NCBI GenBank assembly: GCA_964631375.1
Contig: CAZVYQ010000004.1
Location: forward strand, 12,910 to 76,909
Reading direction: 5' to 3'
Source of the DNA: an uncultured Lachnospiraceae bacterium
Lineage (GTDB): Bacteria > Bacillota > Clostridia > Lachnospirales > Lachnospiraceae
DNA length: 64,000 nucleotides
Each line of letters opens with the position of its first letter. Position 1 is the stretch's first letter. The position numbers were made by a program, and so were the translations under genes. A model generated the notes under the pieces. The model was not told where the DNA came from. It saw only the letters and a program-made list of their open reading frames with translations, and did no database searches. This document shows, one piece after another, positions 15,595-63,795 of this stretch.

Positions 15595-17706
15595 ATGGGG
15601 GCAATTCTCATTGACATATTCATCTGGTGGCTGATACTGCTGCTCATTGGAGTGATCCTACTGCCGATTGGTGTGCGTATCTTTTCTTCTTTTCAGGATA
15701 AGGGTTATTTATTTACAAAGGTATTGGGTCTGGCAGTTCTGTCATATCTTGTGTTTGTGTTAGCAAATATGAGGCTGCTTCCGTTTCATCGTTTTACCAT
15801 TCTGCTCATGGCAGCAGTGGTTATGATCGCTGAGTGTGTTTGGCTGCTTTGCTCGAGGCAGGCAGCACTGCGTTTTGGAGAGACTTTGAGAAATCGCAAT
15901 TTTTGGGTACATGTAGCGATTGAGGAAGTTGTGTTTATGCTGACATTGCTCGTATGGGCGTATTTACGCAGCAGAACGCCAGCACTGGATCATACGGAAA
16001 TGTTCATGGATCATGGTTTTGTGAAGAGCATCCTCAATGCAGACTATCTGCCTGCAGCAGATATGTGGTATGCAGGTGGGACGATTAATTATTATTACTA
16101 CGGGCAGTATGTGACTGCCTTTTTATGCAGACTCTCAGGCAGGAGCTCAGGCGTCGGCTATAATCTCATGATGGCGACACTCTTTGCCCTGACATTTGTA
16201 TTATCTTTTTCAATTGCATATCAGTTACTTTGTATGAAACAAGAAATCAGACGTAGCTTTGCAGTCATCGGAGGTATATTATCGGCATTGGTGGTTACAT
16301 TATCGGGCAATGCACATGCATTCCTGTATGCGATCATTTTTCCGCTATTAAACAGACTGGGACTGATGGAGTATTCCTTTGGACATGATATTGATCGCTA
16401 TTGGTATCCGGATGCAACCAGATACATTCATTGTTTTGAAGGTAGTACGGATGGAACGATCACAGAGTTCCCGCTTTACTCCTTCGTCCTGTCGGATCTG
16501 CATGCACATGTGGTGGATATTGTGTTTGTCCTGTTGTTTTTAGCTCTGTTGATTCAGTTTATCAGTACAACGGGAGAACAAAAACAGAAACTAACGGAAT
16601 GGTTGAAAAGCATGGCTCCAATGCTCCTATTACTTGGCCTACTGCTGGGTATTATGGCGATGACAAATTATTGGGATTTTGCGATCTATATGGTGGTGTT
16701 TGTGTTTTTCGCAATGTATCAGGCGTGGAAACGTTACAGGTCGTGGAAGCAGCCTGCTTTGTATATGGATGCAGCACTATTGATCGTTTGTGTTTTTTTA
16801 CTTGGCAAGCTTGTCATGCTGCCGTTTACACTTTCGTTTGAACAGATTCATGTAGGACTGGCTTTTGCCAAAGATCATTCACCAATCAACGAGTATTTGG
16901 TCTTATGGGGGATTCCACTTGCGTGGGTGATTCTGTTTGGTAGCTATGTGTATCACAGATGGAAGCAGGGAGAACTAAAACCGGCAGATATCATCGTAGG
17001 GATTTATAGCATTTGTGCAGTAGGCCTGATCGCAGCACCGGAGGTTCTCTATATTGAGGACATTTATTCCAATGCACCGCGTTGCAATACAATGTTCAAG
17101 TTTACCTATGAAGCATTTATTCTGTTTGGATTGATCACTGGTTACATTATGGTAAATACATTATGTAAATGTAAAAATGTATTGGGTAATATTCTTCTCA
17201 TCGTCCTTCTATTACTTCCTCCATTTTGCTACCCATACTATGCAATCCACGAAGTCTACTTTACAGGTGAAAATGCTAAGGCCTTGGACGGACTTGCATA
17301 TATTGCAAAGAAGGATGCAAAAGAATATACCGCAATCGAATGGATTGATGAGAATGTGGCAAAAGACGCTGTGATTCTTGAGGTCAATGCATTAAGCTAT
17401 ACAGAGGGTGATCGGCTCTCTATGGCAACCGGCAGACCAACTGTACAGGGCTGGTGGACACATGAGATGCTCTGGCGTAACCTGAGCTCAGATGATTTAA
17501 ATGTAAGAATTGCTGATATCCGTGAGATCTATGAGGGAATGGAACTAATGAAAACAGAAGAACTGATTGAACAGTATGGGATTGATTATATTTATATTGG
17601 AACACGCGAATGTGAAGCATTTCCCGAGTTACAGTCAGACAAACTTAAGGAATTATCGGATATGATCTATGATTTTGATGGAACACTATTACTGCATATG
17701 AGATAA
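15595..17706 (+). CDS. DUF2298 / YYY-motif large integral membrane protein (GT-C-like)
   Basis: INYYYYGQY motif. About 15 TM helices plus a C-terminal soluble domain. GGAGG lies 7 nt before the ATG at 15595. Confidence 0.6.
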   Translation: MGAILIDIFIWWLILLLIGVILLPIGVRIFSSFQDKGYLFTKVLGLAVLSYLVFVLANMRLLPFHRFTILLMAAVVMIAECVWLLCSRQAALRFGETLRNRNFWVHVAIEEVVFMLTLLVWAYLRSRTPALDHTEMFMDHGFVKSILNADYLPAADMWYAGGTINYYYYGQYVTAFLCRLSGRSSGVGYNLMMATLFALTFVLSFSIAYQLLCMKQEIRRSFAVIGGILSALVVTLSGNAHAFLYAIIFPLLNRLGLMEYSFGHDIDRYWYPDATRYIHCFEGSTDGTITEFPLYSFVLSDLHAHVVDIVFVLLFLALLIQFISTTGEQKQKLTEWLKSMAPMLLLLGLLLGIMAMTNYWDFAIYMVVFVFFAMYQAWKRYRSWKQPALYMDAALLIVCVFLLGKLVMLPFTLSFEQIHVGLAFAKDHSPINEYLVLWGIPLAWVILFGSYVYHRWKQGELKPADIIVGIYSICAVGLIAAPEVLYIEDIYSNAPRCNTMFKFTYEAFILFGLITGYIMVNTLCKCKNVLGNILLIVLLLLPPFCYPYYAIHEVYFTGENAKALDGLAYIAKKDAKEYTAIEWIDENVAKDAVILEVNALSYTEGDRLSMATGRPTVQGWWTHEMLWRNLSSDDLNVRIADIREIYEGMELMKTEELIEQYGIDYIYIGTRECEAFPELQSDKLKELSDMIYDFDGTLLLHMR

Positions 17707-59849: not shown

Positions 59850-59890
59850 TCTGAAATCATAACAAAGCAATGTTACGAGAGGATAAAGCC

Positions 59891-62485
59891 ATGTCACGAT
59901 ATAATAATGGTCTGATCTATACCAACGACAAATGCATTGGATGTAATAAATGTATCTTTGAGTGTCCGGTCATCGGTGCCAATGTCTCCGTTTATCAGAA
60001 TGGGATGAACCGAATCATGGTCAATGAGAAGAAGTGCATTCATTGTGGACATTGCCTCAATACCTGTACACATGATGCACGGGATTATCATGACGATACA
60101 GAACTTTTTTTTGAGGATTTGTCAGCAGGAAACCAGATTGCACTTGCGATTGCACCTTCTTTTTATATCAATTACCCACAGCAGGCCTCTCATATTTTGG
60201 GCTATCTTCGATCACTGGGTGTGGGAAAGATCTATGATGTGGGATTTGGAGCGGATATCGCCACCTATTGCCATATCAAATACATCGAACAGTCTGATGA
60301 AGATAATGGTCAAGGCAAAGCGTATTTGGCCAGAACCTGTCCGGCTCTTGTCAATTATATGGAGTGCTGCGAACCAGAGATGGTGGATCTTTTGATCCCG
60401 ATCCATTCACCGGTGATTTGTCTGGGTATCTATGTCCATCAATACCTGAAAGAGAAAACAGATATTGCGTTTATCAGTCCGTGTATTGCCAAAAAGGATG
60501 AAATCGATGCTGCAACAACGGGTGGGAACATTCGCTATAATGTAACCTACAAGCATCTGATGAAAAGACTAAAGGACATTGATCTAAGTGATTATCAAGC
60601 AGAAAGTGACCTCAAACCAATTGGTCTCGGAAACTTGTTTCCGATGACGGGAGGGTTTAAGGAGTATATTGAGCATTTTATTCCCAGAGAAAAGCTTGTC
60701 TTACGTATGGAGGGGTTTCCTGCAAAGCATGAGCAGCTGTGTGATTATTGTAACAACATCAATCAATCAGACGAAAAACCATGTCTGATTGATATTTTGA
60801 GCTGCAGTCATGGCTGTCTGACAGGACCGGCATCAGAGCCGGATAATTTCCATCTGGTCAATATGCTGTCCGGCTACAGAAAGACACGCAAGGAAACACA
60901 GGAAGGGTTTCTGCAGGATACGGATACAATGGCTGAACGCAGAGAGAGGCTGGAGAATTATTTTTCCGAGCTTGATCTGTCTGACTTTCATTGTGGATAT
61001 ACAGACCGATATCATCAGTCGTTTCACATTCCGGAAAGTACCTATGATGAGATATTTAATACCATGTATAAATATACCGAGGCAGATCGAAATATCAATT
61101 GCCATTCCTGCGGTTATTCTTCCTGCCGTGATATGGTGACGGCTATCGCATACGGCTATAATTGCATGGAAAATTGTGTACATTATACCAAGGATGAGGT
61201 GATGCGACTATACTACACAGACCCTCTGACCGAGATTGCAAACAAGGCGGCATTTATTCGTGACACGACAGAATTATTGCAGAACAATGAGAATACGCAA
61301 TATGTCATCTGTACCATAGACATCAATAATTTTACGGCCGTCAACGATATGTATGGATTCGAGAGGGGTAATCAGGTTCTTCGCTTTTTGGCACGCCGAC
61401 TGCATCAATACTCTCAAGCAGACGGAACCTGTGCCAGACTTGATACCGATCATTTCGCATTATGTGTTCCTTATGAGAAGAGCAGACTGGTGTTTTTTGA
61501 AGAAAAGCCATACTATGATGCGAATGATCTCAACGTTGATTTTCCGATCACGGTGCGTTTTGGGCTGTATCTGGTAGAGGATTCCTATGAGCAGGTTGAC
61601 AAGATGCTGGATCTGTCTGCGATTGCAATGAATCAAAATACAGATAAGAGCAGAAATACATACTTTTTCTATAATGATGATATACGAAAGGAACTTCTCG
61701 AGGAAGCAAGTATCGCCCGTCATATGCGTGAGGCAATCAAAAACGAGGAATTCCAGACTTATCTTCAGCCACAGTATAATCATGCGACCGGAGAACTGGT
61801 AGGAGCAGAGGTATTATGCCGATGGATCAGATCAGACGGTAGTATGATTTCGCCTGATGCTTTTATTCATATCTTTGAGAAGAACGGTTTCATTAGAGAA
61901 TTGGATTATTATATGTGGGACAAGACTTTTCAGCTTGTGCGTAAATGGCTGGATGAGGGAAAGGACCCAGTACCGGTCGCAGTGAATATATCACGAATCA
62001 GTCTGAAGGATGTCAATCTCTGTGAGACCTTCCAACAGTTGAGCGATCGATATCAAATTGAACCGGAAAGAGTGCATCTTGAGATCACAGAAGGTGCATA
62101 TATGCAAAATCAGAGGCAGATCATAGAAATCATAGAAAAATTGCAAAAATGTGGATTTATTATTGCAATGGATGATTTTGGAAGTGGCTATTCCTCTCTG
62201 AACACACTGAAAAGTGTCCCAATTGACATTTTAAAGTTGGATATGGGATTTCTGCGTGGTAAGGACGATCAGAATAAGGGTAGCAGCATCATCAGCTTTG
62301 TGATCAGAATGGCAGAGGCTTTGGGGCTTGCAACCATTGCAGAGGGCGTGGAAACCATTGATCAGGCTGACTTCTTAAAGAGCATCGGATGTGATATGAT
62401 ACAGGGCTTTTTATATGCCAGACCTATGCCGGTGGAACAGTACGAGAAAATATTATTCAATGGAAATAATAGGATTGACAAATGA
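59891..62485 (+). CDS. 2x[4Fe-4S] ferredoxin plus [FeFe]-hydrogenase-like (H-cluster-type) domain plus Cx2Cx4C motif, fused to a degenerate GGDEF and an EAL
   Basis: CIGCNKCIFECP and CIHCGHCLNTC. H-cluster-like motifs RTCP, SPCIAKKDE (PCxxKxxE) and SCSHGCLTG (CxxGCxxG). CHSCGYSSC. The GGDEF position reads LDTDHF. The EAL has EVLCRW, VNISR, EITEG, DDFGSGYSSL, EGVET and QGFLY. Confidence 0.75.
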   Translation: MSRYNNGLIYTNDKCIGCNKCIFECPVIGANVSVYQNGMNRIMVNEKKCIHCGHCLNTCTHDARDYHDDTELFFEDLSAGNQIALAIAPSFYINYPQQASHILGYLRSLGVGKIYDVGFGADIATYCHIKYIEQSDEDNGQGKAYLARTCPALVNYMECCEPEMVDLLIPIHSPVICLGIYVHQYLKEKTDIAFISPCIAKKDEIDAATTGGNIRYNVTYKHLMKRLKDIDLSDYQAESDLKPIGLGNLFPMTGGFKEYIEHFIPREKLVLRMEGFPAKHEQLCDYCNNINQSDEKPCLIDILSCSHGCLTGPASEPDNFHLVNMLSGYRKTRKETQEGFLQDTDTMAERRERLENYFSELDLSDFHCGYTDRYHQSFHIPESTYDEIFNTMYKYTEADRNINCHSCGYSSCRDMVTAIAYGYNCMENCVHYTKDEVMRLYYTDPLTEIANKAAFIRDTTELLQNNENTQYVICTIDINNFTAVNDMYGFERGNQVLRFLARRLHQYSQADGTCARLDTDHFALCVPYEKSRLVFFEEKPYYDANDLNVDFPITVRFGLYLVEDSYEQVDKMLDLSAIAMNQNTDKSRNTYFFYNDDIRKELLEEASIARHMREAIKNEEFQTYLQPQYNHATGELVGAEVLCRWIRSDGSMISPDAFIHIFEKNGFIRELDYYMWDKTFQLVRKWLDEGKDPVPVAVNISRISLKDVNLCETFQQLSDRYQIEPERVHLEITEGAYMQNQRQIIEIIEKLQKCGFIIAMDDFGSGYSSLNTLKSVPIDILKLDMGFLRGKDDQNKGSSIISFVIRMAEALGLATIAEGVETIDQADFLKSIGCDMIQGFLYARPMPVEQYEKILFNGNNRIDK

Positions 62486-62664
62486 TAACCCGTCCATTAT
62501 CATGATTTATGAGTCTGTTAGTTCCTGAGTCTATTTCCTTTGAGGGTTTCTGTATTTCCATAGGATTTTTTCATTCATCCTGCTAATCCATGTGATGATT
62601 ATTTAGTTAATTCATGTTATAATGTTAAGGTTACATCAGTGAGACGACACAGGTGGAGGACAGA

Positions 62665-63174
62665 ATGCAGATAGATGAGATGTATGAACAGTATTATCCC
62701 AAGGTATATAACTATGTATACTATCGTTTGATGAACAGAGAGCGTACGGAGGATATTGTCAGCAGTGTGTTTGTCAAGGTGGTCTCCTGCTGGGATACCT
62801 ATGATGCGAGTAAAGCATCGTTCGGTACATGGATTTTCAGGATTACACAGAACACATTAATTGATTATTACCGTCTCAACAAACAGGTTGCTTCTACAGA
62901 GGAGATCGAATATGAGATGTCTGTAGAGTTTGAGGGAGAGGAAATGATTCTTCAAGAGGAGACGAACCGGGAGGTACATCGCATCCTGATGACACTCAAT
63001 GAATCTGAGCGTGAACTGCTATATCTGAAGTTTTACGCAGAGAAGAAAAACAGGCAGATCGGTGAACTGCTCGGAATGACAGAGACAGCTGTGTCAACTA
63101 AGCTTTCGAGGGTCTTACATAAATTAAGGAATGTAATGAAAGAAGCAGATTTTATGGAACTGGGTTTACAATAA
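62665..63174 (+). CDS. ECF-type sigma-70 family sigma factor
   Basis: Region 2 (EDIVSSVFVKV...WIFRITQNTLIDYYR) and region 4 (ELLYLKFY...IGELLGMTETAVSTKLSRVLHKL). Confidence 0.8.
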   Translation: MQIDEMYEQYYPKVYNYVYYRLMNRERTEDIVSSVFVKVVSCWDTYDASKASFGTWIFRITQNTLIDYYRLNKQVASTEEIEYEMSVEFEGEEMILQEETNREVHRILMTLNESERELLYLKFYAEKKNRQIGELLGMTETAVSTKLSRVLHKLRNVMKEADFMELGLQ

Positions 63175-63254
63175 AGAATGTGACGATTTTTACGTCAGAT
63201 CGTATAATTAGGTAAAAAGTACTATAACTATTTGAAACACAGGAGGGCAATGAT

Positions 63255-63437
63255 ATGGCAGAATTAATTCGTGATGAAGATCTGGAACAGGTTGATGGTG
63301 GCAGACGAATAGCAAGATGCGGTGAAAAAAAGGTATTAACAGGAACAGAATGGGTTTGTACATGTGGACGTAAGAATAAAATAACGGATATAGAATGTGC
63401 ATGTGGAAAAAGCAACCCCAATCTTAAAAAGGCGTAG
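63255..63437 (+). CDS. 60-aa peptide: double-glycine-type leader followed by a Lys/Cys-rich, zinc-ribbon-like core
   Basis: MAELIRDEDLEQVDGG, then RRIARCGEKKVLTGTEWVCTCGRKNKITDIECACGKSNPNLKKA. GGAGGG RBS 7 nt upstream. Confidence 0.45.
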   Translation: MAELIRDEDLEQVDGGRRIARCGEKKVLTGTEWVCTCGRKNKITDIECACGKSNPNLKKA

Positions 63438-63485
63438 CATTTTGCATTCAGGAGCCAATCTGCATGGACGAAGGGATGTGCTGAT

Positions 63486-63674
63486 ATGAGTAATATATTT
63501 CAACGTGCCGATTTTTCAAGAGATGATTCGGTCAAACAATCAATTTATCATCAGATGAAACAAACGGTGCATGACAGTCGGATCACTGTGCTCCCTGACC
63601 AGTTGAGTGATGATGATCTGGAACAGGTAGCAGCGGCCGGACTGCCGGTGAAAAGGGATATCCCCGTTCAATAA
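63486..63674 (+). CDS. 62-aa peptide with an LSDDDLEQVAAAG leader-like motif near the C-terminus
   Basis: The same DLEQV motif as the preceding ORF. Only 10-12 residues follow it (LPVKRDIPVQ). The RBS is weak. Confidence 0.35.
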   Translation: MSNIFQRADFSRDDSVKQSIYHQMKQTVHDSRITVLPDQLSDDDLEQVAAAGLPVKRDIPVQ

Positions 63675-63795
63675 TACAATTCTGAAACACAATCTTATGG
63701 CGGCCGGATGCTTAGGCACCCGGTGATCTGCCATTTTCCACGAAAGAGAAAATATAATATGATAGCGAAACCACTGGAATATGAAAGGAGTTTTT

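Follow-up and report, generated by a model that had tools for sequence, protein, structure and literature searches.

A conserved module of an ECF sigma factor and double-glycine-type peptide genes, evolutionarily tied to NHLP-type peptidase exporters in Lachnospiraceae

Gut Clostridia commonly encode NHLP-type peptidase exporters, many of which are orphans without known substrate or control. In this work we analysed a sigma factor gene and two small peptide genes, which we call P1 and P2, in a 64,000-nucleotide stretch of DNA from an uncultured Lachnospiraceae bacterium (GenBank assembly GCA_964631375.1, contig CAZVYQ010000004.1, positions 12,910 to 76,909 of the forward strand), hereafter the window. 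Secretion and sigma factor activity are connected in the FlgM/sigma-28 checkpoint, where a small and largely unstructured sigma inhibitor carries a signal for the export apparatus and the targets are expressed only with a working secretion machine. A different principle operates in RseA and RsiW, in which regulated proteolysis exposes alanine-rich C-termini for ClpXP, RseA(1-108) ending in VAA. Among peptide systems, the closest described are the Nif11 and NHLP long-leader precursors (TIGR03793, TIGR03798) and the NHLM export cassette (TIGR03794, TIGR03796, TIGR03797), which go back to Haft, Basu and Mitchell (2010) and are cited here as relayed in PMC4289311. Double-glycine (GG) leader peptides exported by ABC (ATP-binding cassette) transporters that contain a peptidase (PCATs) include the class II bacteriocins, ComC with its exporter ComAB, and CtA with PCAT1 of Clostridium thermocellum (PMC6959990, PMC8794836), and the microbisporicin system supplies MibX/MibW, an extracytoplasmic function (ECF) sigma/anti-sigma pair controlling a lantibiotic cluster (PMC4203916). 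A full-text literature search returned no account in which an ECF sigma factor goes together with both a PCAT and a leader-like partner.

The analysis gives good support to a conserved module of GG-type peptide genes under the control of an ECF sigma factor, to an evolutionary tie between this module and NHLP-type peptidase exporters, and to P1 as the cargo-type member of the module. More tentatively, and at a probability that we put just short of an even chance, we favour a reading of the sequences in which P1 and P2 form an operon that is governed by the sigma factor and linked to these PCATs, and P2 is a regulatory partner that is read by the exporter peptidase. The features of the locus are as follows.

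62665 to 63174, plus strand: ECF-type (group 4) sigma gene, 169 amino acids (aa) from its ATG; the GTG at 62653 is the start in the list of open reading frames (ORFs).
63179 to 63208, plus strand: conserved ECF-type promoter candidate, TGTGAC-N15-TCGTATAAT, in the spacer between the sigma gene and P1, upstream of P1-P2.
63255 to 63302, plus strand: P1 leader (residues 1-16, MAELIRDEDLEQVDGG), of the canonical double-glycine type with V-4, L-7, D-8, I-12 and GG.
63303 to 63437, plus strand: P1 cargo (residues 17-60 and stop codon), a cationic four-Cys zinc-ribbon-like peptide.
63486 to 63575, plus strand: P2 N-terminus, conserved (residues 1-30, NIFQRADFSxDxxxKxxI...); residues 14-30 are predicted to be helical.
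63603 to 63638, plus strand: P2 leader-end motif (residues 40-51, LSDDDLEQVAAA), with AA where canonical leaders have GG.
63639 to 63674, plus strand: P2 tail (residues 52-62, GLPVKRDIPVQ, and stop codon), hypervariable.
63697 to 63740, plus strand: terminator-like hairpin followed by UUUUCC.

An earlier annotation made from the letters alone (the sequence-only reading) had described three ORFs with spacings of 80 and 48 nucleotides (nt), and they read as described: P1 (63255-63437, 60 aa, preceded by AGGAGG) lies 80 nt 3' of the sigma gene, and P2 (63486-63674, 62 aa) lies 48 nt 3' of P1. For the sigma gene, the ATG at 62665, which sits 7 nt after GGAGGA, is a likelier start than the GTG at 62653. 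The ECF assignment of that reading is borne out by TIGR02937 (109.9 bits against a cut-off of 42.9) and by the Pfam domains Sigma70_r2 (PF04542) and Sigma70_r4_2 (PF08281), with no domains beyond sigma-2 and sigma-4, so that by its domain content the product is an ECF (group 4) sigma-70 factor. Orthologs share 61-72% identity with it in five sister species. No anti-sigma gene had been evident at the locus, and our search agrees: no anti-sigma domain (zf-HC2, RskA and the like) was found in the adjacent genes, P1 and P2 match no such family in Pfam or NCBIfam, and no membrane protein adjoins.

The evidence for an exporter begins elsewhere in the genome. C39 peptidase domains are found on contigs C31 and C33 only, which agrees with the earlier remark that the window holds no C39 exporter, and the genome scan that had been suggested for such transporters recovered two NHLP-type pairs (C31:15105-17297 and C33:22953-25109). 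Both C39 exporters score above the TIGR03796 cut-off of 853 (938 and 946 bits), while the second subunits reach 746 and 677 bits against a TIGR03797 cut-off of 709, the ABC2 subunit at 677 falling below. The peptidase Cys and His motifs are present in both C39 exporters, and on these motifs the two pairs are catalytically plausible. A strict-pattern scan of the small ORFs of the genome found no GG-leader peptide beside either pair, and since no such peptide adjoins them, the two pairs are orphans.

We also observed a short HlyD-like membrane ORF 5' of each exporter pair (C31, ~17300-17520, minus strand; C33:25137-25685). NHLP exporters of these Lachnospiraceae are preceded by 68-182-aa proteins with a single transmembrane segment, further copies of which lie at L042:9216-9605, L043:8393-8794, L046:8558-8818 and L065:5205-5426. 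Of the NHLM HlyD protein they retain just the N-terminal part (C33 copy: TIGR03794, E 2e-7), and from their sequences they look like a pared-down adaptor that would suit a Gram-positive envelope.

Presence and absence of the four elements were compared across eight related metagenome-assembled genomes (MAGs) of the genus, which are 74-95% complete and form a small, phylogenetically non-independent sample.

G000, G001, G002, G003 and G006: sigma ortholog, P2, P1 and C39 exporter all present.
G007: sigma ortholog and P2 present, P1 and C39 exporter absent.
G004 and G005: sigma ortholog, P2, P1 and C39 exporter all absent.

P1 and the C39 exporter occur together in five of five genomes and are both absent in three of three, and the sigma ortholog and P2 are found together in six of six. 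By this distribution P1 follows the exporter and P2 follows the sigma factor. Both peptide ORFs are also intact and syntenic (sigma-P1-P2-comM) in four sister species, with 52-58% identity for P1 and 39-51% for P2, which answers favourably the question of their conservation in relatives.

To extend the comparison beyond the genus, we surveyed 401 Lachnospiraceae genomes, one per genus, with the window's own genus represented by two. The sigma clade was found in 8 of the 401 genomes, and outside the genus it occurs in six other genera at 35-43% identity. An NHLP exporter pair stands directly beside the sigma gene in all five assessable loci outside the genus, and also at locus L065, with TIGR03796 scores of 826-946 bits for the sigma-adjacent exporters. 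P2-like genes were present in 7 of the 401 genomes, six of which are sigma-clade genomes with both genes always in the same locus (hypergeometric P 3.5e-11 for the overlap). The gene orders of four of these genomes are given below.

G389: exporter pair, GG-leader Cys peptide, P2-like gene, sigma gene.
G165: exporter pair, sigma gene, P2-like gene.
G283: sigma gene, 116-aa GG-leader protein, P2-like gene, STAS gene.
G347: P2-like gene, radical-SAM/SPASM (radical S-adenosylmethionine) gene, PP2C gene, STAS gene, sigma gene, RsbW-like gene, HlyD-like gene, exporter pair.

The GG-leader Cys peptide of G389 passes the TIGR03949 cut-off (21.9 bits against 21.5). The link to a C39 exporter that the sequence-only reading had drawn from the leader motif is upheld in this way on two sides, by the co-occurrence of P1 and exporter in the genus and by the related loci beside NHLP exporters in other genera.

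With eleven further P2-family loci added, 15 informative contexts were available overall, and 13 of the 15 have a sigma gene of this type in the locus (meaning ECF-type sigma domains, of the same clade where checked). In two loci the sigma and P2-family genes even share bases, 4 nt in L067 and 8 nt in L069. An NHLP exporter adjoins in five or six contexts, STAS proteins are found in three, and radical-SAM enzymes and DUF7005 proteins in two each. Most contexts include other GG-leader or Nif11-type peptides, the latter adjoining P2-like genes in L068 and L072, and these accompanying peptides are unrelated to one another in cargo and in leader type (short GG or Nif11-like). One P2-like gene was found per locus examined, the loci not having been exhaustively re-searched.

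Two further observations concern the neighbours of the sigma clade. A DUF7005 protein of 283-298 aa lies between the sigma gene and the P2-like gene on two unrelated metagenome contigs (L065:1541-2437 and L068:1163-2014), and the L065 copy has an HExxH motif (YHECTHF); the leader-like peptide may thus have a metalloprotease of its own in this protein. Partner-switching parts, which normally go with sigma-B and sigma-F type factors, accompany this sigma clade as STAS anti-anti-sigma proteins in L042 (G347), L058 (G283) and L067, and in G347 they also include an RsbW-like kinase and PP2C phosphatases.

Control by the sigma factor is suggested by the promoter candidate. In an alignment of five genus members the motif is TGTGA(C/T)-N15-TCGTAT, in which TGTGA and TCGTAT are invariant; the same motif with equal spacing stands upstream of the G007 P2-like gene and of the G283 GG-leader gene, and looser versions occur upstream of the peptide genes in G389, G165 and G347. 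In its GTGA-type -35 and CGTA-type -10 elements the motif is similar to ECF promoters such as those of Bacillus sigma-W, sigma-X and sigma-M. Exact matches number only four in the 3-Mb genome; exact motif hits in C12 and C48 were set aside as intragenic. As a side observation, intergenic exact copies of TGTGAT-N15-TCGTATA at C10:63281-63308 and C66:437-464 (both minus strand) lie ~100-150 nt upstream of genes, for a lipoprotein and for a signal-peptide protein with Asp-rich repeats respectively, and it is possible that these genes are extra members of the sigma regulon. Autoregulation of the sigma gene from a promoter of the P1-P2 type was considered and rejected, as the sigma genes lack conservation in their upstream regions, of which three have a housekeeping (sigma-A-type) TGnTATAAT. 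Since the upstream regions are not conserved and three carry this housekeeping element, post-translational control of the sigma factor is plausible.

P1 has the properties of an exported cargo. The residues that the sequence-only reading had counted back from the GG (V at -4, L at -7, an acidic residue, D, at -8 and I at -12) are correct, and across seven homologs D7, L10, E11, V13, G15 and G16 of the leader are invariant. P1 is the sole N-terminal match to the strict GG-leader pattern among the small ORFs of the genome. A hidden Markov model (HMM) of the 16-aa P1 leader, run on all 85,984 stop-to-stop ORFs of the genome, ranks P1 first (E 5e-8), P2 second (E 0.15) and the third ORF at E 20. 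Because the model places the adjacent P2 second and the strict pattern singles out P1, the leader motifs of the two peptides are better than chance, and the earlier proposal of a double-glycine-type motif on both is supported.

Conservation of P1 runs along its whole length in the seven homologs, with W-x-C-x-CGRxN-x6-C-x-CG-xx-NPN invariant in the cargo, which has 44 aa, an isoelectric point of 9.6 and a net charge of +7. The CxC...CxC quartet that had been pointed out earlier is therefore conserved, while Cys22 of the window copy, which had been counted in the same pattern, is not. The AlphaFold model is confident for residues 31-55 alone (predicted local distance difference test (pLDDT) score ~80), where it forms a beta-hairpin knuckle. 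The best fold matches are RanBP2/NZF zinc fingers and L40e, at ~1 A root-mean-square deviation over 25-26 residues and not significant (E >1), and the best PDB sequence match, the Nup153 zinc finger, is likewise not significant (E 0.18). The search against curated precursor families that had been suggested was run, and neither P1 nor P2 has a significant match in Pfam or NCBIfam; for P1, PF10439 (Bacteriocin_IIc) stayed below its cut-off of 27.1 bits, at 12.9 bits (E 0.12). A single-sequence search with P1 of a 5.8-billion-protein set returned nothing besides P1 itself, and queries built from alignments found 7 P1 clusters and 9 P2 clusters, all named hypothetical. The search for related loci from the alignment returned genus members only, all of them uncultured Lachnospiraceae MAGs.

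A modified peptide in this genome, the other possibility that had been raised for the cargo, is unsupported: no maturase (LanM, cyclodehydratase or radical SAM) lies within the window, and the radical-SAM enzyme that is found in the relatives G347 and G353 has no ortholog in this genome, the best match to the G347 radical-SAM/SPASM enzyme having 27% identity over 175 aa.

P2 combines a conserved N-terminus, a leader-like end and a variable tail. Within the genus N3, F5, R7, A8, D9, F10 and K17 are invariant, in the pattern N-I/L-F-x-R-A-D-F-S/A-x-D-x3-K, and the motif near the C-terminus is kept as (L)S-D/E-D-D-L-x-x-V-x-A-A-G. The double-glycine-type spacing claimed for P2 in the sequence-only reading holds; the GG itself does not, for A50 and A51 at the GG position are invariant or nearly so and are followed by a mostly conserved G. 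The spacing is L-12, D-8, L-7, V-4, which we take to be that of Nif11/ProcA-type leaders, LSDAELEGVAGG. The tail had been described as having the size of a secreted signalling peptide; that it is a conserved signalling peptide is not supported, as tails vary in length and composition across the family and even within the genus. The AlphaFold model of P2 (mean pLDDT 73.5) consists of two helices, at 14-30 and 42-51, with a flexible linker between them and coil in the remainder.

When 1.84 billion representative proteins were searched with a profile, a P2 family of 201 clusters (50% identity) emerged at E up to 1e-3, mostly of 55-90 aa. The family consensus begins M..IE.IFKKADFSKGSDHKE.LR..LF and continues with a variable linker, F-K-x-A-D-F-S-K-x-S-x-x-K-E-x-L being the N-terminal consensus over 61 members; the leader end reads ELSDDELDMV(S/A)AAG, and the tail of 8-45 aa is Cys-rich or zinc-ribbon-like in some members. 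Some members end in VAGG, AAGG or VSGG, with GG at the AA position of the others in a gap-free alignment. None of the 61 members has a significant match in NCBIfam, TIGR03798 and TIGR03793 were absent from their matches at E up to 1, and P2 itself matches no Nif11/NHLP leader model at that threshold. Pfam had no match for P2 or for any of the 61 members, and among PDB sequences the P2 profile matched artificial alpha-repeat proteins alone, which are spurious hits. One metagenome protein, P0070 (276 aa), has five tandem VEVVELSDADLEAIAGAG repeats followed by NHNETLVS and looks from its sequence like a multi-cassette precursor that reuses the P2-type leader-end motif.

Under the favoured reading, the sigma factor would transcribe P1-P2 from the TGTGAC-N15-TCGTAT promoter, and cleavage of P1 after GG16 would free a cationic four-Cys cargo of 44 aa for export. 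P2 would not be a product but the regulatory partner of the sigma factor, most likely an inhibitor, whose N-terminal helix would bind the sigma factor and whose Nif11-like leader end the exporter's C39 domain would read. P2 would lose its activity on being cleaved after V-A-A-A or captured at the exporter, and the new C-terminus V-x-A-A would resemble the ClpXP tags of RseA (VAA) and RsiW (Ala-rich). In this way the cell would make the peptides only while it has an exporter that works. In its general form, P2 and its family of ~200 clusters may be a new class of small soluble sigma regulators with a double-glycine-like leader end, which the peptidase of an NHLP-type ABC exporter cleaves or captures, maybe exposing a ClpXP-type V-x-A-A, with the sigma factor freed only when an exporter is present and free; this is a speculative proposal, and we would sooner expect it to need revision than to stand as worded.

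P2 is favoured as the regulatory partner because no common enzyme neighbour is found across the loci and the sigma gene alone is constant, because a single P2-like gene per locus examined accompanies cargos that vary, and because the sigma-P2 pair persists without exporter and maturase. The two predicted helices of P2 with their flexible linker also speak for it, as does the lack of any other anti-sigma candidate at the locus. The earlier suggestion that both peptides could be unusual partners of the sigma factor consequently divides in two: it fits P2 well, the sigma gene being the only constant neighbour of its family, and it does not fit P1, which tracks the exporter.

Several findings weigh against this reading. 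The AA that replaces GG in P2 may be a poor C39 site, and cleavage sites do not usually have a conserved G at +1. The promoter motif was absent upstream of the C31 and C33 exporter operons in the genome motif scan. G007 keeps the sigma gene and P2 without a C39 exporter (genome 92% complete), and L067 has no exporter within 9 kb, so that exporter gating is not universal. In G347 the sigma factor has its own RsbW-like and STAS partners, and the P2-like gene lies upstream of a maturase, as a normal precursor gene would. P0142 and P0072, with canonical GG and long Cys-rich cargos, and P0074, in which a P2-type N-terminus is fused to a Nif11-like leader, have the look of ordinary precursors. A weak member of the P2 family after ftsY has no sigma gene nearby.

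The alternative that survives best takes P1 and P2 both as ordinary exporter substrates, with P2 as a precursor whose long leader would define a new family comparable to Nif11/NHLP, its short variable core secreted as a signalling or bacteriocin-like peptide, and the sigma factor as a pathway activator without P2 contact. We regard it as less likely than the favoured reading, and as its main rival. The leader and core architecture, the LSDDELxxV(A/S)A(A/G)G motif and the hypervariable tails, including Cys-rich and GG variants, are those of a precursor, and P0074 unites a P2-type N-terminus with a Nif11-like leader. The G347 P2-like gene is directly 5' of the radical-SAM/SPASM enzyme (77 nt from gene to maturase), NHLP exporters adjoin in several genera, and a conserved sigma-type promoter before the peptide genes suits simple activation. 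However, the conserved N-terminal region comes without a shared enzyme partner (radical SAM at two loci, DUF7005 at two, and neither at most), whereas the sigma gene is a constant neighbour with translational coupling in two loci. True precursors often multiply, but a single P2-like gene was found per locus examined, and the sigma-P2 pair persists in G007 without the exporter. The tails of the genus, moreover, have no Cys, Ser or Thr patterns or aromatics that would suit known modifications, and no maturase accompanies them.

It is improbable that P1 and P2 are conserved intracellular small proteins of unrelated function, for example in nucleic-acid binding, which stand beside the sigma gene by chance and whose likeness to leaders reflects acidic amphipathic helices. 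Such a view can draw on the failure of P1 and P2 to match any curated family, on the lack of significance of the structure matches and on the location of the exporters on other contigs without the promoter motif. The co-occurrence statistics oppose coincidence, however, and NHLP exporter synteny recurs in other genera, P2 is both the neighbour of P1 and its second-best leader-HMM match in the genome, and true GG appears in P2-family variants.

Finally, the idea of P1 as a small cytoplasmic zinc-binding anti-sigma (like CsfB/Gin), with P2 accessory, the GG-like motifs incidental and no export, has the four invariant Cys, the zinc-ribbon-like predicted fold, the position directly 3' of the sigma gene and the lack of a membrane anti-sigma at the locus in its favour, but this conventional role, which the sequence-only reading had named as its own counter-case, is improbable, as G007 keeps sigma and P2 without P1 and the presence of P1 matches that of C39 exporters, unrelated GG-leader peptides hold its position in other genera (one above the TIGR03949 cut-off), its leader is canonical at every diagnostic position and invariant in homologs, and it has no HxxxCxxC (ZAS) motif or paired CxxC.

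The next gene after P2 is yifB/comM (TIGR00368, 520 bits against a cut-off of 362), as had been stated, and the intervening hairpin (RNA fold -21.4 kcal/mol, z-score -2.87; 1 of 200 shuffles folds equally well) is terminator-like and is predicted to end the P1-P2 unit ahead of comM. The idea that the sigma factor regulates the adjacent comM in competence, in the manner of ComX, was rejected, given the terminator-like hairpin between the two units and the different neighbourhood of the sigma-P2 pair in G007. The 9-mer TGAAACACA occurs at 63233-63241, just 5' of the P1 ribosome-binding site, and at 63683-63691, 9 nt 3' of the P2 stop; it brackets the operon and may be a chance repeat. Upstream of the sigma gene, 59870-62485 encodes an 871-aa protein in which an [FeFe]-hydrogenase-like N-terminal domain (TIGR04105, E 8e-37) is joined to GGDEF and EAL domains, and which by this architecture may be a hydrogen- or redox-sensing cyclic di-GMP phosphodiesterase.

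For the many orphan exporters of gut Clostridia, the locus offers possible substrates, a sigma factor dedicated to them whose promoter motif can be recognised, and an unannotated family of peptides that are nearly always found with that sigma factor. The motif is a handle for regulon discovery and for activating silent peptide loci in gut anaerobes. If it is true that P2 couples the sigma factor to the exporter peptidase, this would be a new way to tie expression to secretion capacity and a new anti-sigma class; on a conservative reading, the P2 family would be a third long-leader family beside Nif11 and NHLP.

Compared with MibX/MibW, the locus likewise has an ECF sigma factor dedicated to a ribosomal-peptide locus, with its own promoter motif before the peptide genes, whereas MibW is a membrane anti-sigma of Actinobacteria without a leader-like motif. 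The P1 knuckle shares W-x-C-x-C-x3-N-x6-C-x-C with RanBP2/NZF fingers and L40e ribbons, on which its predicted hairpin superposes at ~1 A, but its knuckles are CxC and not CxxC, and the resemblance is one of fold only. Compared with known PCAT substrates, P1 has the same kind of acidic amphipathic leader, 16 aa to the GG with hydrophobic residues at -4, -7 and -12, and its genome encodes C39 ABC exporters with catalytic Cys and His motifs; it differs in lying apart from its presumed exporter, in its zinc-ribbon-like CxC...CxC cargo, which has no known bacteriocin relative, and in having no adjoining immunity gene or two-component sensor.

P2 stands closest to the Nif11/NHLP precursors, with which it shares the exporter family (TIGR03796 and TIGR03797 in this genome), a long conserved leader, the leader-end spacing (L-12, acidic -8, L-7, V-4) and a hypervariable C-terminal part. 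In contrast to them, its N-terminal region is homologous to neither leader family (61 members tested), most members of the P2 family have AA then G instead of GG, and the constant neighbour is an ECF sigma gene and not a maturase. With RseA and RsiW, P2 would share a C-terminus of V-x-A-A if it were cut after the invariant AA, a likeness that is hypothetical here; unlike them it is soluble without a transmembrane segment, and a C39 domain would take the place of the site-2 protease. An ABC exporter with a peptidase domain also differs from the type III system of FlgM/sigma-28, to which there is no homology, but the logic proposed for P2, with binding and export both inferred, would be that of the FlgM checkpoint.

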